Virus record (IMG/VR): IMGVR_UViG_3300018495_000088
Location: 45,163 to 109,162 of that record
Source: a virus
Lineage: Duplodnaviria > Caudoviricetes
DNA: 64,000 nt
Direction: 5' to 3' (one strand)
A program made the position numbers and the translations under genes. Under the pieces are notes generated by a model. The model had not been told where the DNA came from. It worked only from the letters and a program-made list of their open reading frames with translations, and made no database searches. The stretch's first letter is position 1, and each line of letters begins with the position of its first letter. Below, piece after piece: positions 758-40,606 of this stretch.

Positions 758-1303
758 ATGGCTACAAAAAAATCAACAGTTGAAACCGAAGAAATCATCG
801 ATACCGAGGCGGTCGAGGAAGTTAAGCCCGCTCCAAAAAAGGTCAACAAGCCAAAACACGACCCCAATGAACTTATTCTTTGTAGAAGTGTTCGTTTTGG
901 TGAGCTTAGACTTATTGGTCCAAAGACTCGTATGCCTTATAGCTGGGCAAACGAAGGAGATGTGCGAGAGGTTGAATATCAAGACCTTGTATCTTGGAGA
1001 GCACTTCATTCTAGATATCTTTTCGAGCCAATGATTATCATTGAGGACGAGGATATTGTTGAGGAGTGGAAGGCGGATCTTGGGGAACTCTATGATGAAC
1101 TTCAGGACATTGATATTAAAGCAATGTTTAAGCTTCCTCATAGACAGTTTGTCGCACAGCTTAAGAAACTTCCTGCTGGTATGAAGACTACAGTCCAGAA
1201 TATGGCTTATTCTATGATTCAGGATAGAACTCTTTATGACCTTAGAATTATCGACGCTATTGATGAGATTCTTGGTACAGAACTGAAGATGATGATCAAC
1301 TAA
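758..1303 (+). CDS. Phage hypothetical protein following the capsid gene (181 aa)
   Basis: AAGGAG RBS; low-complexity K/E N-terminus; position after capsid. Confidence 0.6.
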   Translation: MATKKSTVETEEIIDTEAVEEVKPAPKKVNKPKHDPNELILCRSVRFGELRLIGPKTRMPYSWANEGDVREVEYQDLVSWRALHSRYLFEPMIIIEDEDIVEEWKADLGELYDELQDIDIKAMFKLPHRQFVAQLKKLPAGMKTTVQNMAYSMIQDRTLYDLRIIDAIDEILGTELKMMIN

Positions 1304-4449: not shown

Positions 4450-4485
4450 ATATTAAAAAAATTTATTTAATGGAGGAAATATATC

Positions 4486-5259
4486 ATGGCTCAGTATGCA
4501 CTCGATAGAGTTATTAGCGTTGCTGGTACTTACGCAGCAACCAATTCCAAGAAGGGTATTACTGAAGGCGGCCTCGCATTCCTTTGCGACCAGGTCGTAG
4601 ACCCTTCTCTTTCTTTTACCTCTGAAACAGAGGATATCGTAGACGCAAGAAATAATGTAGTAATGCAGCTTCAGGGCGCTCGTGGAGCAACCCTTGGCGC
4701 TTCCAACGCTTTCTTCAACACTCAGATCCTTGCAAACCAGACTGGCGGCAAGGTAGAGGCAATCACCGCAGAGACCTTCGACAAGTACGACATCTGCACT
4801 CTTGATGCAGAGAAGAAGGCAACCCTTACCGTTACACCTTCGGCTGATAGCGAGTATAAGGTGTTCGCTCTTCGTACTGACAATAGCATCACTACTGCAG
4901 AGCCCACCGTTGGTACTTACGCTGACGGTAAGGTAACTGTAGAAAACGGTGTTGAGGGCGACAGAGTTCTCGTTGCTTATACCGCAGAGGTTAAGACTGG
5001 TGAGAAGATCGTTGCTCTTGCAGATGCTCAGAACGAACTTATGAACGTAACTGCAGAAGTTCTTCTTCGTGAACTTTGCGCAGAGGAGCTTTATTATGCT
5101 TACATCATCATGAGAGGTAAGCTCTCTGGTGAGGCTGAGTGGTCTATGACCAGAGATGGTAACCACGCTTTCGAAATTACTGCATTCCCCTCTTATTGCG
5201 ATGCAGAGAGAAAGCTTGTTGAAGTTATTATCGTTAGAGGCGAGGATCTCCTTGCTTAA
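4486..5259 (+). CDS. Major tail (tail tube) protein (257 aa)
   Basis: GGAGG RBS; same strong codon bias as the capsid; beta-rich, acidic; followed by a stable hairpin. Confidence 0.7.
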   Translation: MAQYALDRVISVAGTYAATNSKKGITEGGLAFLCDQVVDPSLSFTSETEDIVDARNNVVMQLQGARGATLGASNAFFNTQILANQTGGKVEAITAETFDKYDICTLDAEKKATLTVTPSADSEYKVFALRTDNSITTAEPTVGTYADGKVTVENGVEGDRVLVAYTAEVKTGEKIVALADAQNELMNVTAEVLLRELCAEELYYAYIIMRGKLSGEAEWSMTRDGNHAFEITAFPSYCDAERKLVEVIIVRGEDLLA

Positions 5260-13347: not shown

Positions 13348-13484
13348 ACCAATTTATAAAAAGCTTGACTAGATTATATCAGCATAATAAAGTTGACGAG
13401 AAAAAATTAAAAGAATTATTAACGAATAAAAAAATTAATCAGCAGGAATACACTTATATTATTTCTGCTAAGAAGGCGGTGTAA
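13344..13484 (+). CDS. XkdX-like small protein (46 aa; not in the ORF track)
   Basis: GGAGGG RBS; ATGA overlap; MNQFIKSLTRLYQHNKVDEKKLKELLTNKKINQQEYTYIISAKKAV shows the XkdX-like ..KI...EY..I pattern. Confidence 0.65.
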   Translation: MNQFIKSLTRLYQHNKVDEKKLKELLTNKKINQQEYTYIISAKKAV

Positions 13485-13485
13485 T

Positions 13486-14352
13486 ATGTACACTATTTTA
13501 CTCGGCGAAAGTAATGAGCTTATAACAAGTGTGCGAGAAAGAATTATGCAGCGCAGCAAACTTGTCGATGCTCTTCATTTTCTTGTAGATCCCACATATA
13601 AAGGGATTGATATGTCAGACTTCACAGTGACGATGGAGTACGTTACGCCCGTTAGTAGAGAGTATCGAACTGAGACTCTTGTGAAGTCTGAGGCGCTGTA
13701 TAAGGAAAGATTAGAATATAAACTTCCTTTTGATACCGATTTAACTAAAGAAGCGGGTAAAATTGAAATAACACTTACATTTACTAAGGTAGAAATGGAT
13801 CCTGATGGCAATGCTATACAGCGTGTTAGAAAAACAAGCCCCGCTACTGTTACAATTATTCCTTGCGCCGCTTGGTGCAATGTTGTTCCAGATAGTGCTC
13901 TTAGCGCCCTTGACCAGAGACTTCTTAAAGTTGATGCGGCCATTTCTGCCCTTAATGATATGAGTACTTATCTTGATGATAACAAAGCAGACAATATTAT
14001 TATTGATATGGAGGCAAACACTATTCAGCTTACTGCAAATGGAGCGCCCATAGGAGATAAATGCGAAATGCCTGCCAAAGGACATGATTGCGGCATCGAA
14101 AGCTTTGTTATTAGCGTAGATGATGAGATTATTATTACTTTGACAACGGGTCAAGTTATTAATCTTGGTCAGGTAATCGGGGCGTCTGGCGCAACTTTTG
14201 TTCCGCATATTTCGGATGATCTTATTCTCAGCTGGACAAACGATAAAAACTTGGAGAACCCCAATCCCGTTGATCTTTCGCCTTTTAATGACTGGGTAGA
14301 GCTTGGCGACGATGGTGAAGAATCTACCCAGCATAATTGGGAATATATTTAA
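13486..14352 (+). CDS. BppU-like baseplate/fibre anchor protein (288 aa)
   Basis: LEYKLPFDTDLTKEAGKIEITLTF N-terminal domain; GATFVPHISDDLILSWTNDKNLENPNPVDL motif; ends NWEYI. Confidence 0.55.
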   Translation: MYTILLGESNELITSVRERIMQRSKLVDALHFLVDPTYKGIDMSDFTVTMEYVTPVSREYRTETLVKSEALYKERLEYKLPFDTDLTKEAGKIEITLTFTKVEMDPDGNAIQRVRKTSPATVTIIPCAAWCNVVPDSALSALDQRLLKVDAAISALNDMSTYLDDNKADNIIIDMEANTIQLTANGAPIGDKCEMPAKGHDCGIESFVISVDDEIIITLTTGQVINLGQVIGASGATFVPHISDDLILSWTNDKNLENPNPVDLSPFNDWVELGDDGEESTQHNWEYI

Positions 14353-14410
14353 TTGGTAATGACAGTTAAATCTGTTGTTATAAAATATTTTTAGAAAGGA
14401 AGGTGAAAAC

Positions 14411-15793
14411 ATGGCAAACGTGCGTTTTCTGAGTGTAAAATTACGCTCAACATTTGATGCGCTACTTACCAAAGAAGCAAATGCCTTGTATTGGATTGAG
14501 GAAACTCAAGAATTATACAAGGGCTCGACGCTTTATGGCACTGGTGCACTCGTAACGGATAAAGTCGCTGGACTTCTGTCGCCCGAAGACTATGTTAAGT
14601 TTCAGGAACTTACGGCTTCTGGTGGCGGACTTAGCAATTTAAAGCCTGTTGATGGAACCATTAGTATTCTTGATGATGCTAATGGCGGCAAAACTATTAG
14701 CGTGGCTATCTCGCCTGACGTTGGAAACCAGCTTGTTGCTGTTGAAGGCGGTTTGTTCGTTCCTACGGCAGTTGTACCTGAGTACTCTATCGAGAGGCAG
14801 ACAGAAGCAGAAGATGGGTTTGCAGTCAGCTATAAGCTGAAGAAGACTGTCGACGGCGTCGAATTCTATGTAGGAGACACTATTAACATCGCTCGCGACC
14901 TCGTATTGAAAAGAGCAACCCTTGAAACAGTAATTGAGGATGGTGTTCCTTATGAAGAGGCGAAAGTCGGTGATCCTTACATTAAAATGGAGTTTAATGA
15001 TGCTAATACATCTAATCTCTATATTCCTGTTAAGGGTCTTGTAGACAATTATTCTGCGGGGTCTGGCATCGAAATTATTGATAACGAAATTAACATTAAG
15101 CTTGCCGATGTGTCTCACGGTCTGCATTTTGTGGACGGCGCTATGTCTCTTGCTCTTGCAACTCGCAAGGTTGATGGTGCTATGTCTAAGGAAGACAAAC
15201 TTATCATTGATTCTATTCCTTCTGTTTATGTAGCACGCAAGTATGACATCACGGACACTCCTGAGGGAACACTTGTAAACTACGGTGAGAAGGAAATCCG
15301 TGTTATGTGTCCTGCTGATGCAAAATTCGTTAAACAAACCGTTGGCGCCAATGGCAATCCCAATATGTATTATATGACATTCAAGGCGTATGCTCCTGAG
15401 GGTGCCGTAAGCTTTAAAGAGGGCGACAGAGGTGTTATTATTGATGAAATACATACCTTCGATGATTCTGCTGCAGGAGTAGATGAGTTTGGTCGCAAAT
15501 ATAGCGTTGTTTGGCTTGCTCTCGCATCTTATGACCCCGCTTCTGATACTTGGACTTATTTTGGTAAGAATTCTTCTGAATCTAAGTATATTGGTTGGGA
15601 TTACGTGGTAGAGTGGTATGGCGAGAACGGCAAGATTGCTTGCGATTCTATTCGTATCAATCTTAGTAATGAAGATTGTCATAACAATACTAAGCCTTAC
15701 TATATGGCTAATTATGTCACCTCTGTTGAGGTAGACGAACTCAAGGAGTCTGTTTATGAAATTGAACGGGCTAATACTTGGGGCGAATTATAA
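14411..15793 (+). CDS. Fibre/appendage segment protein (460 aa)
   Basis: N-terminal domain related to those of 15858/18003/18832; GDTINIARDLV and YSAGSGIEI fibre motifs; ends TWGEL. Confidence 0.6.
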   Translation: MANVRFLSVKLRSTFDALLTKEANALYWIEETQELYKGSTLYGTGALVTDKVAGLLSPEDYVKFQELTASGGGLSNLKPVDGTISILDDANGGKTISVAISPDVGNQLVAVEGGLFVPTAVVPEYSIERQTEAEDGFAVSYKLKKTVDGVEFYVGDTINIARDLVLKRATLETVIEDGVPYEEAKVGDPYIKMEFNDANTSNLYIPVKGLVDNYSAGSGIEIIDNEINIKLADVSHGLHFVDGAMSLALATRKVDGAMSKEDKLIIDSIPSVYVARKYDITDTPEGTLVNYGEKEIRVMCPADAKFVKQTVGANGNPNMYYMTFKAYAPEGAVSFKEGDRGVIIDEIHTFDDSAAGVDEFGRKYSVVWLALASYDPASDTWTYFGKNSSESKYIGWDYVVEWYGENGKIACDSIRINLSNEDCHNNTKPYYMANYVTSVEVDELKESVYEIERANTWGEL

Positions 15794-15857
15794 TTAAATA
15801 CTTAAACAATATTAATAATTATTAAAACAAAATTTTAATTTTTAGGAGGAAATTATC

Positions 15858-17912
15858 ATGGCTAACGAAATGATCAAATTTTTAAGAGGTAACGTAGCTT
15901 CCCTTCCTGCAACTGCAACCCCTGGTGCAGTGTATTTTACCAAAGATGAAGGTCTTTACCTTGGTCTTGAAGATGGTTCCTACCATCGTTATGGTGATTT
16001 TATCACTGTAAATGATGTAGCTTCCCTTCCTGCTGACGGCGCACATGAAACTTGCATGTATTACTGCGTAGCAGAAAATGTACTTGCTAAGTGGAATGGC
16101 TCTAGCTGGACCCAGATTAACAAGCAGAAGACTCTTGCAGAACTTGGTGGTGTAGCTAAGTCTGTTTACGAGGCTAAGATCGCTCTTCTTGAGAAGGCTG
16201 ACTCTGATAACGCTACTGCTATTTCTGGTGTTGACACTAGACTTCAGGCAGCAGAAGAGAAGCTTAAGTCTGTTGCTACTACCGAGGGTCTTGGTGAACT
16301 TACTGATCGTGTAACCACTGCAGAGGGCGATATCGATGACCTTGAGGCTGCTATCGGTGAAGGTGGTTCTGTAACCCTTGCTATCGCTGATGCTAAGCAG
16401 GCTGGTCTTGATGCTAAGGCACTTGCTGAGACTAAGACTACTATGGCTGAGGTTGAAGCTAAGAACTATGCAACCAAGGAAGAAGCTAAGGGTTATGCAG
16501 ATGCTAAGGATACTGCTATTGGTAATGCTCAGGCCAAGGCGGACGAGGCTTATACTCTTGCTAGTGGCAAGGCTACTATGGAAGAAGTTAACACCGCTAT
16601 TGGCAATGCAGGTCACGCTGTAAAGTCCGAGGTTGACCAGGCTATTGCTGATCTCGATGCTGCTTATAAGAAGGCTGACGGCGACATGAAGACCGAGCTC
16701 GAAGGCAAGATTGGCGCAAAGGTTGACCAGTCTGCTTATGATGCTAAGGTTGCTGAGCTTGTTGGTGCCGACACTACCCTTCAGGGTAACATTGATGCTC
16801 TTGCTGGCAAGGTTGGTACTCCTACCGAGGGCAAGACCATCGTTGAGATGATTGCAGACGCTCAGACTGCTGCTACTTACGATGACACTAAGGTTAAGGA
16901 AGACATCAAGGCTAATGCTGATGCTATTGATGCAATCGAAGCAGATTACCTGAAGAAGGCTGACAAGGATGGTCTTCAGGAGCAGATTACTGCCAACGCT
17001 AATGCGATTACTCTTCTGACTAACGGTGTATCCGCAGAAGAGGTTGATGGTGTTAACGACCTTATCCAGTATGTTAAGGAGCATGGTCCTGAAGTAACTG
17101 GTATGAAGGAAGACATTGCCGATAACGCAAAGGCAATTTCTGACCACGAGACTCTTGCTGCTGAGACTTATGAAACTAAGACAGATGCTGGCAATAAGCT
17201 TACTGAGGCTAAGGGTTACACCGATACCGAGGTAGCTAAGGACAGAGCAAGACTTGATGCTCTTGAGCTGATTGACCATGACCACTCTAACAAGGGTGTT
17301 CTTGACGGCATTACCGCCGAGAAGGTATCCGCTTGGGATGCATCTGAGCAGAATGCTAAGGATTATGTTGATGGCAAGATTACCGATCTGAAGATTGGTG
17401 ACTATGCTAAGCAGTCCGACCTTGATACTCATACTGGAGATACTGTTGCTCACATCACTGCTGCAGAGCGTGAAGCTTGGAACAAGGCAGAACAGAATGC
17501 TAAGGACTATGCAGATGGTCTTGCAGGCAACTATGCCGAAGCTGAGCACGAGCATGTAGTTGCTGATATTACTGACTTCGAGGATACAGTAGAAGCAAGA
17601 ATTACCGCTAAGGGTTATGCTACTACTGGTTATGCAGACGACAAGGCTTCTGCCGCTCAGTCTGCTGCTGAAGCAAAGGCTGCAGAACTTGATTCTGCGC
17701 TTAAGACTGAACTTGAGGGCAAGATTACTTCTGGTGATTCTGCTACTCTTGCTTCTGCCAATGCTTATGCCGACACTGCTAAGAGCGAGGCAATTGCTGC
17801 TGCTAAGACCGAGACCGAGTCTCAGGTTAAGGCTCTTGCTGAGGGTCAGGTTACTACTAACAAGAATGACATTGCAAGTCTGTTTGAGCAGCTTCAGTGG
17901 GGTTCTTTTTAA
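15858..17912 (+). CDS. Ala-rich coiled-coil fibre protein, probably high copy number (684 aa)
   Basis: AGGAGG RBS; capsid-like codon bias; repeated AK.YAD/AK.YTD and HxH motifs; ends QWGSF; followed by a strong terminator. Confidence 0.7.
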   Translation: MANEMIKFLRGNVASLPATATPGAVYFTKDEGLYLGLEDGSYHRYGDFITVNDVASLPADGAHETCMYYCVAENVLAKWNGSSWTQINKQKTLAELGGVAKSVYEAKIALLEKADSDNATAISGVDTRLQAAEEKLKSVATTEGLGELTDRVTTAEGDIDDLEAAIGEGGSVTLAIADAKQAGLDAKALAETKTTMAEVEAKNYATKEEAKGYADAKDTAIGNAQAKADEAYTLASGKATMEEVNTAIGNAGHAVKSEVDQAIADLDAAYKKADGDMKTELEGKIGAKVDQSAYDAKVAELVGADTTLQGNIDALAGKVGTPTEGKTIVEMIADAQTAATYDDTKVKEDIKANADAIDAIEADYLKKADKDGLQEQITANANAITLLTNGVSAEEVDGVNDLIQYVKEHGPEVTGMKEDIADNAKAISDHETLAAETYETKTDAGNKLTEAKGYTDTEVAKDRARLDALELIDHDHSNKGVLDGITAEKVSAWDASEQNAKDYVDGKITDLKIGDYAKQSDLDTHTGDTVAHITAAEREAWNKAEQNAKDYADGLAGNYAEAEHEHVVADITDFEDTVEARITAKGYATTGYADDKASAAQSAAEAKAAELDSALKTELEGKITSGDSATLASANAYADTAKSEAIAAAKTETESQVKALAEGQVTTNKNDIASLFEQLQWGSF

Positions 17913-17939
17913 TAGAATCTAAATATAAATAAACTTAAT

Positions 17940-17970
17940 AGGCTAGTGGGGAAACCCACTAGCCTTCTTT
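17940..17970 (+). terminator. Intrinsic terminator
   Basis: Perfect 11-bp stem AGGCTAGTGGG-GAAA-CCCACTAGCCT then TCTTT. Confidence 0.8.
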
Positions 17971-18002
17971 AAAAAAAATAACCGAATGACGAGGAAACAA
18001 CG

Positions 18003-18669
18003 ATGGCAATACTTAAACCGCTTAGAGGACACAGTTCCTCATTGAATGCACGACCCTTATGTGACGGTTCTATTTATTTTTGCGTTGATACTGGCCTGTT
18101 GTATGTTGATTGTGAAGACGACAAAGGTAATTTGGTGCGTTTAAATGTGCTTGCGGATCGTGCCAATAAAGTAGGATATACGATAGACGATGTAGACGTA
18201 GAGATCAAAGCCTCAGAAATAGCTACTAAGGAATATGTGCGTGGGTTATTGATGGATAATGGAAATTTTACCAAAGAAATTATTTTTGAAATGATTTACC
18301 CCTGTTGGTTCCATTTATATATCGACATCAGATGTATCTCCGTTAGTTTTGTTTGGATTTGGTTCTTGGGAGAAAATTGAAGACAGATTTTTACTTGCGT
18401 CAAGTTCTACTTATTCAATTAATACTGAGGGCGGCGAAGCTACCCACACATTGACAGTAGATGAGATGCCTACGCACGCACACGATTTCAATAGACATCA
18501 ATTATGGACTACGGAAACTGCGCCCGAAACCAGTTTGGAACAAGGTTATGGCGTCACTAACAAATCCGTTGCGATTTATAGAGATACGACCACAACTGCG
18601 GGGAGCGGAATGTCTCACAATAATATGCCTCCGTATCTTGCGGTAAATATATGGAAAAGAGTTAACTGA
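18003..18669 (+). pseudogene. Fibre-tip/baseplate protein (T4 gp10 C-terminal-like domain) split by a +1 frameshift at 18299-18302; pseudogene, sequencing error or programmed shift
   Basis: Removing one C from TAC CCC TGT joins 18003..18380 to the 18349..18669 frame and restores IYPVGSIYISTSDVSP..LFGFGSWEKIEDRFLL...GGEATHTLTVDEMPTHAH...HNNMPPYLAVNIWKRV (221 aa). Confidence 0.75.
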
Positions 18670-18755
18670 TATATTTATTTTATAAAAATAGAATTTTTGG
18701 GCATATTTAATGCTTAAAACTTGAAAATTACAAATAATTAATTTTGAAAACAACA

Positions 18756-18805
18756 GTTGGCTTTGTAGTCAGAGACACGAAGAAAACTTTTTATATAAAG
18801 CCAAC
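18756..18805. repeat. Intergenic inverted repeat (12-bp arms, 26-nt spacer) upstream of the 1303-aa fibre gene
   Basis: GTTGGCTTTGTA (18756-18767) pairs with TATAAAGCCAAC (18794-18805), one G-U pair. Confidence 0.55.
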
Positions 18806-18831
18806 ATTCTTACTTAGAAGGGAGAATAGAA

Positions 18832-21800
18832 ATGGCACTTTGGAAACCATTTAGAGGCAGTCGTGCAGATTTAGATGCTGTTGCTAAACGTGACGGTTAT
18901 GTTTATTTTTGTGACGATGGAGCCTTATTCTTTGATTATACAGATAAAAATGGTAATCTACAAAGAAAACAAATTAACGCTAAAGACGCCGAAACGCTTA
19001 CAGGCATGTCTTTAGATCAAATTCAAAAATCCATCTCTTGGAACGACCTGCTTAACAAACCCGAACTTGGTCTTATTGCCGTATATGACGAAATTAGCAA
19101 AGGTCTTCTTACCGAAGATGTTCAGGAAACTCTTGATAAGATAGATACTATCGAGAGCGTTTATGAAACAAAGACTGGCTCTTCGATAAAATTAGATGAA
19201 GCTAAGGCTTATGCTGACGCTAACCTTGAAACTGCAAAGTCTTACACTGATGAGAAAATAGCAAACATTCCAGCTGTAGATTCTTATACCAAACCAGAAA
19301 TTGATGCCGCTTTAGAAAACAAAGCAAACAACGATCACGATCATGATGATATTTATTATACAGAAGCAGAGATTGATGTAAAGCTTTCTGGCAAATCCGA
19401 CACTGGTCATACTCATAGCAATTATGCACCTACTTCACGAACTGTTAACGGAAAAGAACTTTCTTCCAACATTACCCTTTCTGCTTCTGATGTCGGTGCT
19501 GATGCAAGCGGTTCTGCTAATACAGCTTTAAATTCTGCAAAGTCTTATACCGACGATGCGATTGAAGCACTTGGCGATACTTATTACACCGAGGCAGAAA
19601 TTGATACAAAGCTTGCATCTAAATCGGATTCAACACATAATCACGACTCTAAATACGACACAAAGGGTTCTGCTTCTGCTGTTCAAACAAATTTAGATGT
19701 AGTAAGCGATACACTCGATTCTCACACAGACGATTCTGACATCCACGTAACTACAACAAATAAGTCTAACTGGAATACTGCTTATACTCATTCTCAATCT
19801 ACTCATGCAAGAACAGATGCAACAAAAGTCGCAGATTCCACAACTAATGGTAATATTCTTATCAATGGAAGTGAAACAAATGTTTACACACATCCCAACT
19901 CTGGCGTAACTGCTGGCACTTATAAGAGCGTGACAGTAAATGCACAAGGTCATGTTACTGGCGGTACGAATCCGACTACATTGGCTGGATATGGAATTAC
20001 CGATGCCGAGACTAAGGGTGCGGCAAGTAGTGCTCTTGCAAGTGCAAAAGAATATACGGACTCTGTAGCATCTGGTAAAGCTAATACAAACCACAATCAC
20101 GACACTACTTATGATAAAAAGGGTGCTGCTGATAGCGCATTGGCTTCTGCAAAATCCTATGCTGATTCTGCCGCTACTACTGCTGCAAATGCTGTTAAGA
20201 ATGACCTATTAAACGGTGCTGGCACAGCTTATGATACTCTTAAAGAACTTGGTGATTTGATTGACGACAATGCAGATGCGATTGATGCGCTTGAAACTGT
20301 TGCCGCTGGCAAAGCTGACAAAACTCATACTCATGCGATTTCGGATGTATCTGGTCTTCAGTCTGCTCTTGATGGTAAGGCAGCCTCTTCTCACGGAACA
20401 CACGTTTCTTATAGTGCTACGGCTCCTGTAATGGACGGTACTGCAAGCGTTGGCACCGCAAGTACCGTTGCAAGAAGCGACCATAAACATCCTACCGACA
20501 CAAGCCGTGCATCTAAAACAGAATTTGATTCTCATACAAGCAATACAACAGCGCATATTACTTCAACAGAAAGAAGCAATTGGAATGCTGCTAAGACACA
20601 CGCTGATTCCGCTCACGCACCTTCTAATGCTGAAAAGAATCAGAACGCATTTAGCAATATTAAGGTAGGTTCTACTACCGTCGCTGCTGATGCTGCAACT
20701 GACACTGTTGAGTTTGTAGGCAGCAACGTCACTATTACTCCTGATACGACTAATGACAAAGTGACCTTTACTGTTGCTGATGGTAGCACAAGTGGAAAGG
20801 GTGTTGTACAACTCACCAACAGTACATCAAGCACTTCTACTACTACCGCTGCAACACCAAGTAGTGTTAAATCGGCTTATGATTTAGCAAATACTGCTAA
20901 GACAAATGCTGCAACCGCACAGTCTAGAGCGGATAGCGCTTATTCTTTGGCTGAAGGCAAAGTTGATAGTTTATCAGACTTAGGTGTAACTGCTACCGCT
21001 ACCGAGTTGAATTATGTTGATGGAGTAACTTCAAATATTCAGACTCAACTGGATGGTAAGGCACCTTCTTCTCACAATCAATCCGCTAGTACTATCACAA
21101 GCGGAACTTTATCTTCTGATAGATTGCCTACCGTTCCGATTTCTAAGGGTGGCACAGGTGCAACAACTGCGGCTGGTGCTCTTACTAATTTAGGAATTAC
21201 AGCTACTGCTGCGGAACTGAACAAAATGGATGGTGTAACAGCTACAACAACTGAGCTTAACTATGTGGATGGAGTTACAAGTAATATTCAGACGCAGTTG
21301 GATGGAAAATTGGATAAAACAACAAAATACGCTGGTAGTTCAAGCACAGGTGGTGCTGCTAATAGTGCAGTTAAAGCAACTCAAGACGGCAGTGGTAATA
21401 CTATTACAAGTACTTATGCAACAAAGGCTGAATTAGATTCAGCTAAATCAAGCTTGCAAACTTCTATTAACGGAAAAGCAAATAGTTCGCATATACATTC
21501 TATTTCTAATGTAACTAATTTACAAAGTTCATTAGACGCAAAACAAGCAACTGTCACAGGTGCTGCGACAACTATCACAGGTTCCAATCTTACCGCTTCA
21601 AGAGCTTTAATTTCTAACTCTTCTGGTAAGGTTGCGGTTTCAGACATAACATCCACGGAATTAGCGTATTTGGACGGCGTTACAAGTAACATCCAAACAC
21701 AACTTGATGCCAGGGCAAATAAGTCAGATATTGCAACAACGATAATGCAGGGTACTGCTACCCAAAATACTACCTATTGGAAAATCTCTGGTTTCGGCAA

Positions 21801-22743
21801 TTGGGGCACAGGAACATGGATGCAAAAAGGTTTTTCCATGCTTATCACTTCAAGAGCGGGCGAAATGGTTTGGGTTAGCCTTGCAGCAAACGACTCTAAT
21901 ACAAGTGCGGGAGCTATTCGTCTTATCAACCGATATTCCAAGATCGCTGCGATACATTACAGTGTTTCGGAAAGCGCAATTTATGTAACTGCAGCTGGCT
22001 GGGCTAATAATATTTGTGCTCATATTCTCTCTAATGTAAATGGAGATTATGTGCCTACCATTGCAAGTGCAAGTGCCTTGCCAAGTGATGCAGTTTCAAT
22101 TAATATTATAGAATTTGGTATTGACGGTACAGGCACTGTCGTTGGAGATAATTCAGTGCCTCTTGCAATGGGCGGCTCCACAACAAGACCAACCTATAAT
22201 AGTAAAGACCTTGCTTTAAAGAGTGACGTCGATGCCATTACGCTAGACACTCTAGGTGGAAATGATAGATATTATACTGAGTCCGAGATTGATAGCAAGG
22301 TGTCAACTTTGAACACCGCTATTAATGGCAAGGCAGCGTCTTCTCACACTCACGATGACAGATATTATACAGAAGCAGAAATCAACGCCAAGGTGGACAC
22401 TTTAAATACTGCTATCGCTGGCAAAGCTCCAAGTGTGCATAGTCACGGTCATATACAAGATGGTACTGTAGGTATGAAGACTTCAGATTCCAATGAAGTG
22501 AGTTTTTCGTCTAACGCTAATTATATCTATTTTGGATATGACAATCGCATGGGTTCAACTGGCATAGTTGATACTTATAAGTTCGGAAAACATAGCGGAA
22601 CAGCTAGTGCTGCAGATGGTAATATCGAATGTGGTTCATTGGCAGCAGGAAGAACTCTTAAGGGTGGAACTGTAACTGTCGGCAACGCAGCTACATTACA
22701 ATATGATTCTACAAATCAATGTCTTAACTTTGTATTCGGATAA
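18832..22743 (+). CDS. Long tail-fibre-like protein with HxH motifs and internal repeats (1303 aa)
   Basis: Repeats YYTE[A/S]EI (4x) and TEL.Y.DGVTSNIQTQLD (3x); GVVQLTNSTSSTSTTTAATPSSVKSAYD fibre motif; many HxH motifs; ends CLNFVFG. Confidence 0.75.
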   Translation: MALWKPFRGSRADLDAVAKRDGYVYFCDDGALFFDYTDKNGNLQRKQINAKDAETLTGMSLDQIQKSISWNDLLNKPELGLIAVYDEISKGLLTEDVQETLDKIDTIESVYETKTGSSIKLDEAKAYADANLETAKSYTDEKIANIPAVDSYTKPEIDAALENKANNDHDHDDIYYTEAEIDVKLSGKSDTGHTHSNYAPTSRTVNGKELSSNITLSASDVGADASGSANTALNSAKSYTDDAIEALGDTYYTEAEIDTKLASKSDSTHNHDSKYDTKGSASAVQTNLDVVSDTLDSHTDDSDIHVTTTNKSNWNTAYTHSQSTHARTDATKVADSTTNGNILINGSETNVYTHPNSGVTAGTYKSVTVNAQGHVTGGTNPTTLAGYGITDAETKGAASSALASAKEYTDSVASGKANTNHNHDTTYDKKGAADSALASAKSYADSAATTAANAVKNDLLNGAGTAYDTLKELGDLIDDNADAIDALETVAAGKADKTHTHAISDVSGLQSALDGKAASSHGTHVSYSATAPVMDGTASVGTASTVARSDHKHPTDTSRASKTEFDSHTSNTTAHITSTERSNWNAAKTHADSAHAPSNAEKNQNAFSNIKVGSTTVAADAATDTVEFVGSNVTITPDTTNDKVTFTVADGSTSGKGVVQLTNSTSSTSTTTAATPSSVKSAYDLANTAKTNAATAQSRADSAYSLAEGKVDSLSDLGVTATATELNYVDGVTSNIQTQLDGKAPSSHNQSASTITSGTLSSDRLPTVPISKGGTGATTAAGALTNLGITATAAELNKMDGVTATTTELNYVDGVTSNIQTQLDGKLDKTTKYAGSSSTGGAANSAVKATQDGSGNTITSTYATKAELDSAKSSLQTSINGKANSSHIHSISNVTNLQSSLDAKQATVTGAATTITGSNLTASRALISNSSGKVAVSDITSTELAYLDGVTSNIQTQLDARANKSDIATTIMQGTATQNTTYWKISGFGNWGTGTWMQKGFSMLITSRAGEMVWVSLAANDSNTSAGAIRLINRYSKIAAIHYSVSESAIYVTAAGWANNICAHILSNVNGDYVPTIASASALPSDAVSINIIEFGIDGTGTVVGDNSVPLAMGGSTTRPTYNSKDLALKSDVDAITLDTLGGNDRYYTESEIDSKVSTLNTAINGKAASSHTHDDRYYTEAEINAKVDTLNTAIAGKAPSVHSHGHIQDGTVGMKTSDSNEVSFSSNANYIYFGYDNRMGSTGIVDTYKFGKHSGTASAADGNIECGSLAAGRTLKGGTVTVGNAATLQYDSTNQCLNFVFG

Positions 22744-22755: not shown

Positions 22756-25700
22756 ATGAGTTTACAAGTATGGTTGCCTCTAAATGGTAATCTAGAAAAT
22801 CTTGGATTGTCGGATTTATCCTTCAGAGTTGTTAACTACAGCAATGCTATTAGTTCAGCAACTTCTGGCGGTAAAGTCGTTTCTGGATTATACAAAAGAA
22901 CTACTAAAGAAACGGCTGATTATATTATCAGCGATAAAAATATTACATTAGATGGCGATGTAACAATGTGTTGTTGGGCTAAAGTAACTGGAATTGGTTA
23001 TAGTGGAACAGCAAACGGCCTCTTTGGGCAGCATGGGCATCAAACAGGTGGACTGGGTATCACGATGAAGGATGTTAGCTCTACTGACTTACGAATGAGC
23101 GTCAATACAGGTTTATATGGCGACAGTCATGGTGGCTCTAGTGACAGAACTTATTGCACATATTACGGTTCAACTAACATTTATAATGCGTGGCATCATT
23201 TATGTTTAACTTATGATAGTAAAACAAAACAGTTACGCATGTATGTAGATGGCAAATTAGAGAATATTCAAGGTTGTGGCTCTTATGCTACGCTAAATGG
23301 TAATAACATTACTCCCAGACCTGTAATCTTATTTGCTTGGTCTACTGACCACCTTAGCTCAAGTATTGTAAATTATCGTCCACCTTGTGAACTAAATGAT
23401 GTTCGTATTTATGACCATGTGCTGTCCGTCAAAGAAATTAAAGAGATATCTAAAGGTCTTGTTGCTCATTATCAGCTAAAACCCACTAATATCACAAATT
23501 ATGCAAAGAGTACTCCGTTCAGTATTTATAATAACTATGGAGTAGGAGCAACTTTAACACAGTTAAGTGAACGATTTATGGGTTATCCTGTTTATAGATT
23601 AACAATGACTCCTACTAGTGCAAGTGTTAGTAGTTTTCAAACCGAGTTGTGGTCACATGGTGTGTGTCATGGTCGGTGGACATTTAATGCAAACACAAAA
23701 TATTGTTACTGGTTATACTATAGACCTGTTAGCCACAATGATATTCGAGCAGGTGGCACAGCAAGTAATATTAATGGATGGACAGAGATTGCTCCTCAAT
23801 ATATTGAAGATGGCTGGTATAGAGTTGGTCAATATAGAAACGGTAGTGTTACTTCAACTCAAGCAGATGACATATATACGTCATTTATAACTCCTTCAGC
23901 AGCAGCTGGTGTTCCAATTACTATTGATTTTTGTGCTCCGCATCTAATTGGTGGGTTATCTGAGATTATTGAGACTTACGATGGAGTAGTAGCTGAGGAT
24001 AACAAAGTACACGATGTATCTGGCTATGGTAATCATTTAAATATTACTGGTTCAATTGCAGCAAATAGTACAAGTCCGAGATACAGTAACAGTCTTGATT
24101 TTAATCAAACTGGTTATCTAAAGAAAACAGACTTTAACATGACCACGAATGAGTTTACCATCACATTCTGGTTGAATCCTCCCTACTCAATCAACGCACA
24201 ACATTTTATATGTGGTACATTTAATAGCTGGACTGGTAACGGATTCGGTATGTGGAGAGACAGCACAGGTGGTGGATATAGTTTGCTGTATAGGTCAAAT
24301 AGTGAGGGTGGTCACACAGGGCTCCCAGCAGTTACGCCTCCTCATGATACATGGAGTCATATAGCAATTGTTTACACTGGCACTCAAGGTATTGTTTATC
24401 TGAACGGGGCCGAAGTAGCTAGAGTAAATGGTGGCTCAAGTGGCACAGTGTCACACCCTGTTCTTTATTTAGGTAACTCAATGTATAGTGAGGTTGCATC
24501 ACAAACAGATGAAGCATCTATGTCTGACTTCAGATTCTATGCTACAGCGTTATCAGCTTCTGATATTGAAGGATTATATAAACACGGTGCTTCTATAGCA
24601 AAAGATGGCACCTTATTCGCATACGACTTTAACGAGTTCAATCCAAATGCAAAAAGTGGTGTTGATAAAGATGGTACTGCTTCTAGTTGCAGTCTTAACA
24701 CTAAAGTAAGTCCTACTGCGGACATGAAGCTTAAAACTTTAGAAGATGGTTCTTCTTGGGCAAGAATACATTATTTGGATCTAACAAATGATAAAACATT
24801 CTTTGCTAATGCTGCTGAGGTTGCTAAATGTAGTAGAAACAATCGTTTTAGCCGTATGAGAGATGTTGATAAGTTTAAGAGTCAACCCTCCCTTTCTAGT
24901 GGTTATACTGAACTTGAGTATATTCAGTCTAGCGGAACACAGTATATTAATACTGGAATTGCTCCAACAAGCGATATGAAGGTTGAAATTTCCTTTATAC
25001 CTACAAATGGATTAACAGAACATTCAATTTTTGGTTCGTCTTGGGCTGTAGATGGATTCTTCCTAATGATTTATCAAGGAAAAATTAGATTCCATTCAGG
25101 TGGTTCAGTTATTGATGCTGTTTCATGTTCAGCAGGAAACAGATATATAATGGAATGTACAAACAGTTATATTAAAATCAACGGTACCAGTTATAGCATT
25201 TCAGGTGGAGCAAATACTGCTAATAATATCCTTCTTCTTGGCGACATGGGATACAACGAAAGTTGTCGTGGTATTGGTAAAATTGAATACGCTAAGATAT
25301 GGGCAGATGGTAAACTCGTTCGTAACTTTGTTCCTTGTAAAAATGCAGGTGGCACAGTTGGTTTATATGATTTAGTTGAAGATAAATTCTACACTAATGC
25401 AGGAAGTGGCTCGTTCACAGCAGGTACTTTTGTAAGTAAGTATGAGTTCATGTTAACTTATCCAGCCCTATCCAGTACTGAATATAATAGATGGACTCAG
25501 ACATCATCACCTAATGCTACGTCCGTTACAGGATATACCCCTATCCATATTGCTTGGCCAGCTCACAGTGCAGGTATTCGCAAACATGGTAGTGCTTCTT
25601 TGTACAACTGTGACAGTGGTGACACTTGGTATGCTCCTATTGGACAGTATAGTATTTGGGAAGGTGGCATTCCCGCGGCAAATGGAAATATGCAACTTCA

Positions 25701-25797
25701 AACAGAACTTTGGGTTAGAACAGATAAATCTGCTGATGCTACTCAAACAAAAATTTATGATGGTACTATAGTAGCATCAAACTTTATTGAATTATAA
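22756..25797 (+). CDS. LamG/concanavalin-like multidomain adhesin (1013 aa)
   Basis: MSLQVWLPLNG start; WHHLCLTYD..LRMYVDG..LNDVRIYDHVLS and WSHIAIVY..MSDFRFYATALS LamG motifs; SGYTELEYIQSSGTQYINTG domain. Confidence 0.75.
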   Translation: MSLQVWLPLNGNLENLGLSDLSFRVVNYSNAISSATSGGKVVSGLYKRTTKETADYIISDKNITLDGDVTMCCWAKVTGIGYSGTANGLFGQHGHQTGGLGITMKDVSSTDLRMSVNTGLYGDSHGGSSDRTYCTYYGSTNIYNAWHHLCLTYDSKTKQLRMYVDGKLENIQGCGSYATLNGNNITPRPVILFAWSTDHLSSSIVNYRPPCELNDVRIYDHVLSVKEIKEISKGLVAHYQLKPTNITNYAKSTPFSIYNNYGVGATLTQLSERFMGYPVYRLTMTPTSASVSSFQTELWSHGVCHGRWTFNANTKYCYWLYYRPVSHNDIRAGGTASNINGWTEIAPQYIEDGWYRVGQYRNGSVTSTQADDIYTSFITPSAAAGVPITIDFCAPHLIGGLSEIIETYDGVVAEDNKVHDVSGYGNHLNITGSIAANSTSPRYSNSLDFNQTGYLKKTDFNMTTNEFTITFWLNPPYSINAQHFICGTFNSWTGNGFGMWRDSTGGGYSLLYRSNSEGGHTGLPAVTPPHDTWSHIAIVYTGTQGIVYLNGAEVARVNGGSSGTVSHPVLYLGNSMYSEVASQTDEASMSDFRFYATALSASDIEGLYKHGASIAKDGTLFAYDFNEFNPNAKSGVDKDGTASSCSLNTKVSPTADMKLKTLEDGSSWARIHYLDLTNDKTFFANAAEVAKCSRNNRFSRMRDVDKFKSQPSLSSGYTELEYIQSSGTQYINTGIAPTSDMKVEISFIPTNGLTEHSIFGSSWAVDGFFLMIYQGKIRFHSGGSVIDAVSCSAGNRYIMECTNSYIKINGTSYSISGGANTANNILLLGDMGYNESCRGIGKIEYAKIWADGKLVRNFVPCKNAGGTVGLYDLVEDKFYTNAGSGSFTAGTFVSKYEFMLTYPALSSTEYNRWTQTSSPNATSVTGYTPIHIAWPAHSAGIRKHGSASLYNCDSGDTWYAPIGQYSIWEGGIPAANGNMQLQTELWVRTDKSADATQTKIYDGTIVASNFIEL

Positions 25798-25812
25798 GGA
25801 GATGATAAATAA

Positions 25813-26052
25813 ATGCAAGTAAAAGATTTAATTGTTACTGGCAACGCTAGAATTCTCGGCAACCTATATACTAATACTAAGATTACGGTAGATTCTGCAT
25901 TATCTAACACGTCTATTAATCCTGTTCAAAATAAGGTTATAAAGGCTGCGTTAGATGCCAAGGCACCCGCATATACCTATGGCACAGCAGATGTTACTGT
26001 GGGTGGTACAAGTAGTGCGGCCACAGGCACATTACATTTTGTATATGAATAA
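25813..26052 (+). CDS. Small fibre adaptor protein (79 aa)
   Basis: AAGGAG RBS; VDSALSNTSINPVQNKVI fibre motif; ends GTLHFVYE. Confidence 0.6.
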   Translation: MQVKDLIVTGNARILGNLYTNTKITVDSALSNTSINPVQNKVIKAALDAKAPAYTYGTADVTVGGTSSAATGTLHFVYE

Positions 26053-26063: not shown

Positions 26064-27272
26064 ATGGCTAAAAAAATGCTTTTAACCATAGATGGCACCT
26101 ATAGAAATATAAAAAAAGCCTACATTACTGTGAACGGTGTTTATCATAAAGTGAAAAAGGCATTTATTACTGTAGGCGGTGTTTATCACCCCGTATGGAA
26201 CGCCAATCCTACCTCTGAACCCACTTATTGGGGCACTTCAGAGAATTTATATGCCCCAGTAAGTCAGCTAGCAGCAACTTCTGTTGGTAATTACGCCTTA
26301 TTTGGTGGAGGGTATGATCCTAGCCTTGATAACAATGAAGCTTTCTCAAGATGTGAGGGCTATAGTTCATCACTTACACATACAAGCCTAACGCCTTTGA
26401 ATGCGACATCATATTCGGCTCTTAGGCTCGCTGCAACTACTGTTGGAGGATATGCCATATTCGGTGGTGGCGAGAGCGATACGCTCGATACTCTTGATTT
26501 GATAAATGACTTTGCAAATAATCACATAACGGCATACAATACTTCATTGACAGACCAAGGTACTCTAACTAATAGTAGACTTGGTGTTGAAGCCTCTAGG
26601 TTGGCGGCTACGACGGTTGGCAATTATGCTTTGTTCGGAGGCGGATATAATAAATGGCACGTATTTGAAAATTGGCAATATAAAACCAAGGAAGCCTGGC
26701 AAAATCATGTGACGGCATATAATTCCTCACTGACAAAATCTGTGCCAGGCGGATTAAACTTGGGAAGACGCGGTTTGGCTGCAACAACTGTTGGAAATTA
26801 TGCTTTATTTGGTGGTGGAATTCAAAGCGGTACAACCAGTAGTATTGTTGATACATATAACACATCTTTGACCAAAGGAACGGCAACTTCTTTGTCCGTA
26901 CCAAGAGATGACTTAACCGCTACGACAGTTGGTGGATATGCAATTTTCGCGGGAGGTTGGAATGATGGCGACGTGAATACGGTTGATGCATATAATACGT
27001 CTTTAACAAGGGTGTCCTGCTCACCGCTGCAAACTGCTCGTGATAAACTTAATTCAACTACCTTGGGCGATTTCGCATTCATTGGATGTAGTGAAGCAAC
27101 TACAAATATTGATGTGTATGACAAAAATTTGACAAAAGTATTTATTTTACAAACACTGCAAGCAAGATGTTTTTACGGGGCGGCCACAATTGGCAACTAT
27201 GCTTTGTTCGGTGGTGGCGACGTAACGGGTATCGGCGTGACCGCAAGAGTCGACGTTTTTACTATAGTTTAA
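26064..27272 (+). CDS. Kelch-like beta-propeller receptor-binding protein (402 aa)
   Basis: Seven repeats of LAATTVGNYALFGGG...AYN.SLT; N-terminal KKAYITVNGVYHKVKK attachment-type motif. Confidence 0.7.
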   Translation: MAKKMLLTIDGTYRNIKKAYITVNGVYHKVKKAFITVGGVYHPVWNANPTSEPTYWGTSENLYAPVSQLAATSVGNYALFGGGYDPSLDNNEAFSRCEGYSSSLTHTSLTPLNATSYSALRLAATTVGGYAIFGGGESDTLDTLDLINDFANNHITAYNTSLTDQGTLTNSRLGVEASRLAATTVGNYALFGGGYNKWHVFENWQYKTKEAWQNHVTAYNSSLTKSVPGGLNLGRRGLAATTVGNYALFGGGIQSGTTSSIVDTYNTSLTKGTATSLSVPRDDLTATTVGGYAIFAGGWNDGDVNTVDAYNTSLTRVSCSPLQTARDKLNSTTLGDFAFIGCSEATTNIDVYDKNLTKVFILQTLQARCFYGAATIGNYALFGGGDVTGIGVTARVDVFTIV

Positions 27273-38126: not shown

Positions 38127-38364
38127 CGAACGTCCAATGATTTTAGATATCGAAGATTTTAAGCAGCAGATAGTTGCGATAATCAATGAGGCAATGCAGG
38201 TGAAAAATATTCCCTGCTTTATACTTGAACCTATTGTGAATGAACTTGCTGCTCAGGTAAGTATGGGCGCAAAAGCTGAGCTTGAACGTGCGAGAAAGCA
38301 AGAAGCAAAGGAGAAAGCTAATGAATCTGATAGAATGTATAATGACAAACAGTCTGTGGTATAA
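38119..38364 (+). CDS. Small helical protein of the type found after tail spikes (81 aa)
   Basis: AAAGGAG RBS; overlaps both neighbours; FKQQIVAIINE...IPCFILEPIV. Confidence 0.6.
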   Translation: MNNERPMILDIEDFKQQIVAIINEAMQVKNIPCFILEPIVNELAAQVSMGAKAELERARKQEAKEKANESDRMYNDKQSVV

Positions 38365-39394: not shown

Positions 39395-39398
39395 GGAT

Positions 39399-39428: not shown

Positions 39429-39457
39429 AATTAATGATTAAAAGGAGAAATACTATT

Positions 39458-40593: not shown

Positions 40594-40606
40594 AGGAGGT
40601 GAAATT

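Follow-up and report, generated by a model that had tools for sequence, protein, structure and literature searches.

A strongly codon-adapted fibre gene of giant gut siphoviruses that may encode the shaft of a plug-and-socket appendage

Described appendages of similar plan

Phage fibres are thought of as assemblies of fixed composition, present in 3-18 copies, and to our knowledge the formation of a filament by self-concatenation has not been described for them. T4 fibritin (wac) is an accessory whisker, found in few copies at the neck. It is anchored by its N-terminus, continues as a long, segmented coiled coil of three chains and closes with a tiny C-terminal element, a foldon of 27 residues that brings its own trimer into register. 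In chaperone-usher pili, the terminal strand of one subunit completes the next subunit to give a linear donor-strand polymer, the length of which is affected by a terminating subunit. Mtd of BPP-1 is a trimeric fibre protein with a short, virion-proximal N-terminal beta module, and it is not known to have a plug peptide. In the T4 long tail fibre gp34-gp35-gp36-gp37, consecutive genes correspond to consecutive segments joined from C-terminus to N-terminus (PMC5537660). Finally, phi29 gp8.5 has two small N-terminal beta barrels, a trimeric base and a helical stem, and is dispensable; each virion carries 165 copies (PMC6542822).

Here we describe a fibre gene found in a window of 64,000 nucleotides, the whole stretch of phage DNA that was analysed. 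Its product combines a small double beta module at the N-terminus (the socket), a predicted helical rod and a short C-terminal peptide (the plug). The plan, like the accessory role, is similar to that of fibritin, but instead of a foldon the protein has a tail of 4-6 residues that directly follows the last helix and is common to neighbouring proteins; neither a Pfam match to Fibritin_C nor sequence similarity to fibritin was found. While each segment of the T4 long tail fibre is used once and its joints are unrelated, the module described here appears to use one repeated plug/socket pair, with one segment over-expressed. The likeness to Mtd, for which there was also an Atlas feature lead, lies in a short, probably virion-proximal N-terminal beta module on a putatively trimeric fibre protein. 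The structural match of Mtd (1yu0) to residues 48-89 (Z 4.6, rmsd 1.7 Å over 39 residues) ties with many unrelated entries and is within noise, and Mtd_N (PF18454) was matched neither by the whole protein at E 0.01 nor by 11 N-terminal fragments at E 5.

The donor-strand pili resemble the present protein by analogy, in that its predicted terminal strand would extend or complete the next beta module. Unlike the pili, to which it has no homology, the protein would form long trimeric rods assembled in the cytoplasm with no usher or chaperone. phi29 gp8.5 would share with it the order of N-terminal beta domains followed by a helical stem, which the AF2 models predict for the present protein, and also docking by strand donation, which is predicted as well. 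In contrast, gp8.5 has 280 aa, is encoded next to the capsid gene and lacks a docking tail at its C-terminus, and no sequence or fold match between the two was found in PDB sequence, Foldseek or VIA searches. While the strand donor in phi29 is the capsid protein, the best candidates here are found among the fibre proteins, and the present protein is one of them.

Codon usage and flanking signals of the fibre gene

The sequencing runs listed for the region 13400..19400 are all DNA runs, from animal faeces and bovine samples, with no RNA run among them, and the source of the fibre gene is a giant long-tailed phage (siphovirus) of the animal gut. Because the tape measure protein has 3385 aa, a tail length of about 0.5 μm is expected. 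The clade consists of gut siphoviruses of about 150-170 kb, throughout which the fibre is codon-tuned like the capsid and tail tube. Table 1 lists the features of the fibre module, of which the anchor-type gene is the first. In the related loci, the fibre gene is always within such a run of anchor, adaptor and tip genes, and never in the head module. In the present assembly, an indel of 1 nt within the run of C at 18299..18302 splits the short tip fibre gene.

Table 1. Features of the fibre module, with positions in the window
Feature	Position	Strand	Remarks
Anchor-type protein, 288 aa	13486..14352	+	No socket; W plug ..HNWEYI after an acidic linker; CAI 0.38
Adaptor-type fibre protein, 460 aa	14411..15793	+	Adaptor-class N-terminal socket MANVRF..ALYWIEETQELYKG; plug ..ANTWGEL; CAI 0.46
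AT-rich leader, possible late promoter	15794..15844	+	From sequence inspection
Strong Shine-Dalgarno and start context GGAGGAAATTATCATGGC	15845..15862	+	Otherwise only at the tail tube gene, 4472..4490
Fibre gene, 684 aa	15858..17912	+	Codon use like that of major structural proteins
Socket subdomain 1, residues 1-47	15858..15998	+	K-F-L-R-G .. L .. G .. Y-F motif common to tip fibres
Socket subdomain 2, residues 48-90	15999..16127	+	V..LP..G..YY..W module; small beta domain
Neck W-x-Q-I-N-K-Q-K-T-L-A-E-L-G-G-V	16107..16154	+	Invariant columns W84..V99; transition into the rod
Segmented alpha-helical rod, residues 101-678 (predicted)	16158..17891	+	Mosaic, length-variable among homologues; HxH and HxxDxxxHIT fibre motifs
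C-terminal plug ..EQLQWGSF-COOH, residues 677-684	17886..17909	+	Always at the extreme protein end
Hairpin, 11-bp stem and GAAA loop	17940..17965	+	Followed by TCTTT and then A8 (17966..17978); from fold and conservation
Short tip fibre	18003..18669	+	Socket and tail-collar-like C-terminal domain; no plug
Long tip fibre, 1303 aa	18832..22743	+	N-terminal socket, Phage_fiber_2 and PTR repeats; no W plug; CAI 0.38

A sequence-only reading of this DNA had claimed that the fibre gene shows the same extreme codon bias as the capsid and tail-tube genes, unlike the neighbouring fibre genes. We calculated the codon adaptation of every gene with the capsid gene (1..717) and the tail-tube gene (4486..5259) as the reference set. 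The fibre gene had a CAI of 0.738, while no other gene of the window outside the reference set exceeded 0.512, the neighbouring fibre genes had 0.26-0.46 and the window median was about 0.33. Thus, the claim was borne out, with the gene placed above every other fibre gene. Its Nc of 31.0 was the minimum of the window. Compared with the rest of the window, it uses AAG for 97% of Lys (43% elsewhere), CAG for 100% of Gln (39%), CTT for 83% of Leu (33%) and GCT for 65% of Ala (34%). In a reference-free PCA of codon fractions over the 109-kb record, the gene was likewise one of the five most extreme. When the relatives were scored against each genome's own capsid and tube, the orthologue ranked 1st of 184 genes in one complete genome (G004) and 5th of 185 in another (G001), and it ranked 1st to 3rd by codon adaptation in 10 of 10 related loci, where the adaptor and tip genes were low. 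In one of the loci (L010), the orthologue adjoins another protein, of 696 aa, that has both a socket and a plug ending in F and is likewise codon-adapted.

The leader of the gene resembles that of the tail tube. The ribosome-binding leader GGAGGAAAT..ATCATGGC precedes only the fibre gene and the tail-tube gene within the window, and the pattern GGAGGAAAN{3,6}ATGGC has two matches in 64 kb, at 4472 (tail tube) and 15845 (fibre gene), with 0.01 expected by chance. The 64-nt spacer 5' of the fibre gene is AT-rich, and comparable AT-rich leaders are found 5' of the tail tube gene and of a 157-aa gene adjoining the capsid gene. Both the tail-tube-like leader and the AT-rich upstream tract noticed earlier are therefore present. 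A scan for sigma-70 promoters found no more sites than in shuffled sequence and none that was convincing 5' of the fibre gene, and no common late-promoter motif could be defined by eye in the AT-rich leaders.

The GAAA-loop hairpin reported after the gene was also found. It is strong (dG -23.2 kcal/mol, z -5.5), and its position is kept in 9 of 11 loci with compensatory stem changes (covariation). Because its U-tract is only UCUUU, followed by A8, the hairpin on the + strand falls below the T-run rule of the consensus scanner; judged from its sequence, it is likely an intrinsic terminator, an attenuator or a 3' end stabiliser. Taken together, the clade-wide codon adaptation, the tail-tube RBS and a conserved, likely terminator of its own support well, if indirectly, that the fibre gene is highly expressed. 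The idea that the protein is produced at the level of a major structural protein is supported by codon adaptation, as a proxy of copy number, and by the RBS and hairpin, and the level itself is probable.

The predicted socket, rod and plug

The shared N-terminal domain and the C-terminal WGSF motif that had been assigned to the fibre protein were both recovered. A profile of residues 1-90 also matched the short tip fibre (E 4e-9) and the long tip fibre (E 2e-5), and the iterated profile added the adaptor. A stretch of 32 residues of the fibre protein is 47% identical to the long tip fibre, in which the socket is followed by a related QINAKDAETLTG that resembles the neck of the fibre protein. 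At the other end, W681 and F684 of the plug are invariant in an alignment of 27 sequences. AF2 models have strands at residues 8-51 and 67-89 and helices at 101-678. The protein is probably a trimer with a helical rod of about 580 residues, or about 85 nm if straight; both the trimer state and the rod length lean on a poor full-length monomer model with a pTM of 0.20.

With a W-x-QINKQ socket at residue 1 and a terminal W-x-x-F, the protein belongs to a plug-and-socket fibre family that is large, unannotated and known from metagenomes only. The family socket always begins at residue 1, and the plug is at the extreme C-terminus even in a homologue of 1296 aa. The N-terminal signature and the plug are present in 119 of 121 close homologues. 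Among the wider family (142 cluster representatives at E<=1e-30), a W plug, mostly W-[GS]-x-F, closes 118 of the 128 diverse representatives that have 400 aa or more, and socket and plug co-occur in about 92-98% of family members.

No PHROG or Pfam match was found for the whole protein (Pfam E 0.01), including Phage_fiber_2 (PF03406); a motif of the HxxDxxxH(I/V)T..W repeat type may be present. None of 50,697 records of cultured phages was matched in tblastn with the whole protein or with residues 1-125, and the PDB sequence search gave nothing beyond a short fibre-motif match and chance Ig matches. Profile positions 530-578 have a local match to Gp15 of the Listeria PSA shoulder (6r5w, E 0.007). 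With the model of the N-terminal domain, Foldseek gave nothing at E<=0.001, while the best match in VIA fold searches was the collagen XV trimerisation domain at Z 5.7. All VIA matches were below Z 8, among them a weak likeness of socket subdomain 2 to the N-terminal domains of Mtd and tailspikes.

Predicted docking and proposed assembly of the fibre

It appears that the terminal W-x-x-hydrophobic peptide and the small N-terminal beta module wire several fibre proteins in gene order. In 11 loci, the next protein had a socket for 27 of 39 W-plug proteins, versus 6 of 195 plug-less proteins (Fisher p 2e-20, which is not a true probability because the loci are related). The gene immediately upstream of the fibre gene is without a standard plug in three loci. 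Plugs of the fibre family always end in F, and the 19 plugs of upstream anchors and adaptors end in L, M, I or E, never in F. These classes fit a class-specific pairing, in which the adaptor plug would bind the socket of the fibre protein and the F plug of the fibre protein would bind the tip sockets. Whether the plug has S or E at position -2 showed no clear covariation with the socket columns of the same protein (maximum z 3.2, without tree correction).

The sequence-only reading had further suggested that the protein could add to itself end to end. We predicted the complex of three N-terminal fragments (residues 1-135) with three C-terminal fragments (residues 625-684). The protein's own plug against its own socket scored 0.68, and the best of three controls scored 0.00. 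The calibration, in which 58 of 80 solved complexes and 2 of 110 mismatched pairs came up to this mark, had settings other than the author-built alignments and the 3+3 layout used here. Three runs agreed in at least 96% of contacts with a partner pLDDT of at least 91. The last eight residues are predicted to add as a strand onto strand 3-11 in the N-terminal module of another trimer. The predicted contacts are between residues 3-11, 15-17, 23 and 26, the predicted plug-binding surface of socket subdomain 1, and residues 674 and 677-684, and they include the invariant F8, G11, L16, G23, W681 and F684.

Since there is no solved relative, the passing score does not stem from a known structure. 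Nevertheless, the test is known to pass close cousins of the true partner too, and the pass may therefore reflect the interface of the adaptor plug with the socket of the fibre protein instead of true self-pairing. Because the adaptor plugs are related to that of the fibre protein but belong to another class, self-pairing is only plausible. What stands of the suggested self-association is thus a predicted docking on invariant residues that a cousin plug could also pass.

Since both ends of the pair are on the fibre protein, and since the protein appears strongly translated from its own terminated unit, far above its neighbours, head-to-tail joining is the most likely reading. We propose, with a probability of about 40%, that the protein forms the shaft of a modular fibre of the plug-and-socket kind, as a high-copy subunit of which several are joined head to tail. 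We infer copy number, docking, polymerisation and read-through as follows. A low-copy anchor would offer its plug, and a low-copy adaptor with both socket and plug would be placed between anchor and shaft. The last seven to eight residues of one shaft trimer would dock on strand 3-11 in the N-terminal module of the next trimer, as in the predicted complex, and several shaft units would so be joined head to tail between adaptor and tip. The tip fibres, having a socket and no plug, would end the chain. Made at a low level past the hairpin, they may act as chain terminators, in which case the filament length would depend on how much shaft is made per tip. Capping by tips made through terminator read-through would fit the order of the genes, the conserved hairpin and the tip genes' low codon adaptation. 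The full form of this proposal is a true homopolymer of 85-nm trimeric rods joined by W-G-S-F strand docking, started by the adaptor and stopped by the plug-less tips, with a length set kinetically by the shaft/tip ratio at a leaky terminator and no ruler protein; we regard this form as possible, with the odds somewhat against it.

Capsid-level codon adaptation would also suit a protein present in hundreds of copies on a lattice. The protein could be an accessory fibre of many independent trimers, with the N-terminal beta modules on capsid hexamers, three-fold sites or tail rings and the distal plug free or occasionally bound to a tip protein, which we consider unlikely. There are precedents in phi29 gp8.5, which has the layout predicted here, is present in 165 copies and has its barrel completed by the major capsid protein, through the C-terminal strand of the latter (PMC6542822), and in SPP1 gp12, a trimer at hexamer centres (PMC7602432). 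The capsid protein of the clade ends in ..FGVWEIV, with a W at -4 like the plugs, and Thrax2 and AM5, which are without the fibre, are also without the W in the capsid tail. Furthermore, the fibre is dispensable, as it is absent from complete relatives in which its slot is taken by other codon-adapted fibre genes. However, the W tail of the capsid protein is kept in the complete genomes G008, G009 and G012, which have neither the family nor a detectable socket, and therefore it looks structural and not like a dedicated plug; the capsid C-terminus as a high-copy plug, modelled on phi29, is weakened accordingly. A decorating fibre also does not sit well with the constant place of the gene inside the anchor-adaptor-tip run instead of the head module, with a close relative (G003) whose capsid and tube are nearly the same (tube 89% identical) and whose socket is of another type, with 49% identity over residues 1-135, or, less tellingly, with the lack of a fold match to the gp8.5 base in the Foldseek and VIA lists.

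The gene order and the plug-socket adjacency suit an ordered chain, and this would be so even if each chain had one anchor, one adaptor, one shaft and one tip (1:1:1:1), as in the T4 long tail fibre, and the shaft protein were over-expressed to make up for inefficient trimer folding, to give an assembly excess or to release free fibres. The distinct plug classes suggest a pair-specific docking that would prevent self-addition, and tandem fusions are absent from 121 homologues; a Rosetta-stone search found no fused plug-socket junction in these homologues or in longer proteins. We hold a single-unit shaft to be doubtful, less probable than a decorating fibre, since it leaves unexplained why in every genome this member alone, among stoichiometric partners, has capsid-like codons, a tail-tube RBS and its own likely terminator, and since the self-docking prediction passed. 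It is very improbable that the codon bias is unrelated to expression and reflects a recent transfer from a differently biased genome or a repetitive Ala-rich composition. Although the gene has a GC of 0.47 in a window with an average of about 0.40, and its rod is a mosaic between homologues, the synonymous choices match those of the capsid and tube genes of the same genome, which also have a GC of 0.47. The bias is uniform across conserved and variable parts of the gene (CAI 0.63-0.91 in all 100-codon windows) and was seen again in all relatives tested, each with reference genes of its own, so this explanation is largely refuted.

If self-docking is true, the head-to-tail shaft would be a new construction of virion appendages, polymerisation with chain terminators, and the peptide-domain pair would offer a compact connector with which modular receptor-binding fibres could be engineered. 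If the homopolymer is true, the appendages of giant gut siphoviruses would be very long and would vary in length, possibly as micrometre-scale 'fishing lines'. Even if the protein decorates a lattice, the plug-and-socket code would help to annotate the long and so far unannotated fibre regions of large Firmicutes phages. In two loci (G008 and L011), the C-terminal motif of the module is ..NGGNA instead, and the downstream genes have a different N-terminal module.

Expression signals of the fibre gene

Codon adaptation (CAI) was computed for every gene with the capsid and tail tube genes as the reference. The fibre gene at 15858..17912 scored 0.738, while the next gene scored 0.512 and the neighbouring fibre genes 0.26-0.46, confirming a codon bias like that of capsid and tail tube and unlike that of the other fibre genes. 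Its Nc (31.0) was the lowest in the window. The bias lies in synonymous choice (AAG for 97% of Lys, CAG for 100% of Gln, CTT for 83% of Leu, GCT for 65% of Ala), follows the codons preferred by capsid and tube, and is uniform along the gene (0.63-0.91 in each 100-codon window). Principal component analysis of codon fractions, which uses no reference set, placed the fibre gene among five outliers of the record, the others being the capsid and tube genes, a 157-aa gene next to capsid, and a single gene on the minus strand. The leader GGAGGAAAN{3,6}ATGGC matched twice in 64 kb (0.01 expected), at the tube gene and the fibre gene, in agreement with the leader likeness claimed by the sequence-only reading. 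The GAAA-loop terminator proposed there stands as a hairpin of 11 pairs (dG -23 kcal/mol, z -5.5), but its U-tract is short (UCUUU).

Features discussed in the text (window positions unless a genome or locus is named; G000, whole record; G001 and G004, related phage genomes; L010, related locus)
Feature	Position	Remarks
Major capsid protein	1..717	partial gene, C-terminal two thirds; capsid likeness
Gene just after capsid gene	758..1303	intermediate CAI, 0.49-0.51
Tail tube	4486..5259	matches a PHROG of virion structural proteins; identity taken from gene position and codon use
Anchor (module gene 1)	13486..14352	small protein; acidic linker, then end ..Y-x-W-x-x-hydrophobic
Adaptor (module gene 2)	14411..15793	related N-terminal module at start, similar W tail at end
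Target fibre (module gene 3)	15858..17912 (+)	684 aa
Hairpin	17940..17965	
Tip fibres (module gene 4, one or more)	18003..18669; 18832..22743	start module MAL[WF]K..RG...DGY.YFC, different end
Tape measure protein	40607..50764	3385 aa
tRNA array	G000 34875..35567	8 genes, ~9.6-10.3 kb upstream of window
157-aa gene	G000 44277..44750	directly before capsid gene, just upstream of window; orthologues L010:301-777, L013:670-1140
Capsid gene pieces	G001 24199..24621; 26616..27032	~2 kb between
GIY-YIG-like protein	G001 25060..25953	within the ~2-kb insert
Tape measure ORF	G001 58302..75341	5679 codons
Tape measure ORF	G004 33336..44336	3666 codons
Two extra genes	G004 75352..76220	between putative portal and protease genes
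696-aa protein	L010:12459-14549	behind the fibre orthologue

G004 (170 kb) and G001 (168 kb), two related genomes that are complete and carry terminal repeats, were each scored on their own capsid and tube, and the fibre orthologue ranked 1st of 184 genes and 5th of 185, respectively. Across ten related loci from IMG/VR it ranked 1st to 3rd, in each case on a par with capsid, tube and the 157-aa gene, and the genes immediately flanking it there were low in codon adaptation. A hairpin of -18 to -22 kcal/mol lies 16-37 nt past the stop codon in 9 of 11 loci, with stems that vary in sequence yet keep pairing. This conservation is the strongest argument that the expression signal is functional. 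Since codon rank and hairpin are conserved across relatives, we infer with good support that the fibre is highly expressed, as implied by the suggested production at major-structural-protein levels, and the protein is likely present in high copy number.

The fibre protein and its two ends

The AlphaFold2 monomer has a beta-rich N-terminal region (residues 8-89, pLDDT ~80; mean pLDDT 77 for the N-terminal fragment modelled by itself), segmented helices (101-678) and a short tail. The helices would form a straight rod of ~85 nm, and the protein is probably trimeric. Searched against 1.84 billion proteins, a profile of residues 1-135 matched 769 cluster representatives at E<=1e-10, of which 142 reached E<=1e-30, and without exception the match began at residue 1. 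Searches of Pfam, PHROG, PDB and cultured phages gave no match to the family, and no annotated family explains the fibre. Fold searches found weak likeness only (Z<=5.7): to collagen trimerisation domains, and to modules at the N-terminus of phage fibres and tailspikes, Mtd among them.

In the family alignment, conservation is highest over the first 120 residues, where W-x-QINKQKTLAELGGV is invariant; the rod is a mosaic, and the protein ends in W-G-S/E-F, whose W and F never vary. Both the N-terminal double beta module (the socket) and the terminal motif (the plug) occur in 119 of 121 close homologues and in 118 of 128 diverse representatives (>=400 aa). Thus, the reported N-terminal domain and C-terminal WGSF on one protein are real, and more general than first described.

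The C-terminus was modelled against its own N-terminus, using three copies of residues 1-135 and three of 625-684, with the C-terminal piece scored. The pair passed with a score of 0.68 (best of three controls, 0.00). In the calibration, 58 of 80 solved complexes came up to this mark, as did 2 of 110 mismatched pairs; our test differs from that calibration in its own alignments and 3+3 layout. Contacts agreed by at least 96% among three runs, with partner pLDDT of at least 91. The predicted interface is three-fold symmetric (674 and 677-684 against 3-11, 15-17, 23 and 26), with 681-683 alongside 8-10 and Phe684 packing on L9, G11, L16 and Y26. Nine positions are invariant in residues 1-47, and four of them (F8, G11, L16 and G23) are among the contacts, as are the plug's own invariant W681 and F684. 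PDB sequence searches found no solved relative that the model could recall. The docking mechanism, as predicted at residue level, has good support. Self-docking of the fibre is less well supported, because the test, which supports binding without showing it, also passes close cousins of a true partner, and the plug of the upstream adaptor is such a cousin.

A proposed plug-and-socket module and the probable excess of the fibre

The gene order of anchor-type, adaptor-type, target and one or more tip-type fibres is repeated in the window and the ten related loci. Among 234 adjacent gene pairs, a socket protein followed a W-tail protein in 27 of 39 cases and a protein without the tail in 6 of 195 (p 2e-20, with independence overstated, the loci being related). 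The complete genome G008 lacks the target family, and its slot is filled by two other codon-adapted fibre-like genes ending ..NGGNA, behind which genes start with a different N-terminal module. Locus L011 has both end-motif systems and obeys the same pairing rule. End motifs and start modules therefore switch together, as docking would predict. The slot genes (G008 114408..118069, locus L099, and L011:4781-6892; 414, 796 and 703 aa) end in ..L-x-[LF]-[ND]-[CG]-G-G-[AS]-N and a module of the R..W..GE..IKIGDG type opens the genes after them; this looks like a second plug-and-socket code.

If the fibre were an over-produced single-unit shaft, a single link of a 1:1 chain, codon tuning would have to be alike in its partners; it is not in any genome, so that, judging from codon use, something must be in many more copies than adaptor and tips, and we consider such a shaft improbable. 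Head-to-tail concatenation, to which we give a probability of about 0.4, would account for this excess by units joining head to tail, and also for both ends on one protein, the in-line gene position and the putative terminator ahead of the tip genes. Against it, the target plug is always Phe-ended while the final residue of the 19 anchor and adaptor plugs is L, M, I or E, which hints at pair-specific docking; no tandem fusion was found among 121 homologues, and no covariation of a plug variant with its own socket.

It is rather unlikely, if less so than the shaft, that the fibre decorates the capsid or tail in an array. There are good precedents: the phi29 head fibre gp8.5 (165 copies) has a helical stem behind two small beta barrels at its N-terminus, and a barrel completed by the C-terminal strand of the capsid protein, and SPP1 gp12 trimers are located at hexamer centres. 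The capsid protein of the target phage ends in ..FGVWEIV. However, this tail is kept in complete relatives without the target fibre or any detectable socket, and the target gene is never in the head module. Other readings take the remaining probability. Of the self-polymerising filament first proposed, predicted docking and likely high copy number are supported; self-polymerisation is the leading explanation, still unproven. The target is probably a trimeric phage fibre, and only confirmation of the homopolymer reading would make it an assembly principle of a categorically new kind.

The capsid C-terminus FG-x-W-x-x-[VIA] (697..717 and 29 related loci) is clade-wide, down to 39% identity; Bacillus Thrax2 and Lactococcus AM5 have another end in its place. 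The 696-aa protein of G003, the closest relative, has a tip-type socket and an F-ended plug (..AISWIEF), is codon-adapted (CAI 0.56, AAG for 89% of Lys), and is a candidate second repeating unit. The first tip fibre is one short gene broken into ORFs 18003..18380 and 18349..18669 where a CCCC run (18299..18302) has one C too many, which may reflect misassembly, a true frameshift mutation or a slippage site; its product has an N-terminal socket and a tail-collar-like C-terminal domain (..IYPVGSIYIS..NMPPYLAVNIW..). The two extra genes of G004, absent from this window's genome, encode a 75-aa protein with a V..LP..Y..W module and a W plug (..AGWIKL) and a 209-aa fibre-like protein, and may specify a small plug-and-socket appendage in the head module.

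Genome setting and other codon-adapted genes

The 109-kb record has an estimated completeness of 63%, and the window is its right-hand 64 kb. The capsid protein is ~29% identical to those of giant siphoviruses of Bacillus (Tsamsa-like), Lactococcus (949 group) and Clostridioides. Some 34 kb of fibre-like genes separate the tube gene from the tape measure gene. Strong GGAGG ribosome-binding sites across the window point to a Firmicutes host, and metagenomes carrying this DNA are animal-faeces and bovine only; no RNA run carries it. At the usual 1.5 A per tape measure residue, the tape measure ORFs imply tails of ~0.5, 0.85 and 0.55 um (window, G001 and G004), among the longest inferred for any phage; fibre size (546-695 aa) does not track tape measure length.

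The tRNA array comprises Ala(UGC), Glu, Asn, Asp, Tyr, Thr(UGU), Met and Arg(UCG). The target fibre is richest in Ala, Asp, Glu and Thr (jointly 46% of its residues), and the phage tRNAs may serve this most demanding late protein; their anticodons are not a simple match to the preferred codons GCT and ACT. The 157-aa beta-rich protein equals capsid in codon adaptation across all genomes examined (CAI 0.73 in G000) and is likely a capsid decoration or scaffold protein. In G001, the sequence ..TTTAATTGCTGGAAG..CTAAAGACA..ACAACGTAA recurs in similar form behind both the tail tube gene (downstream of 31537) and the first piece of the capsid gene, and the insertions resemble group I introns, placed in the two genes of highest expression.
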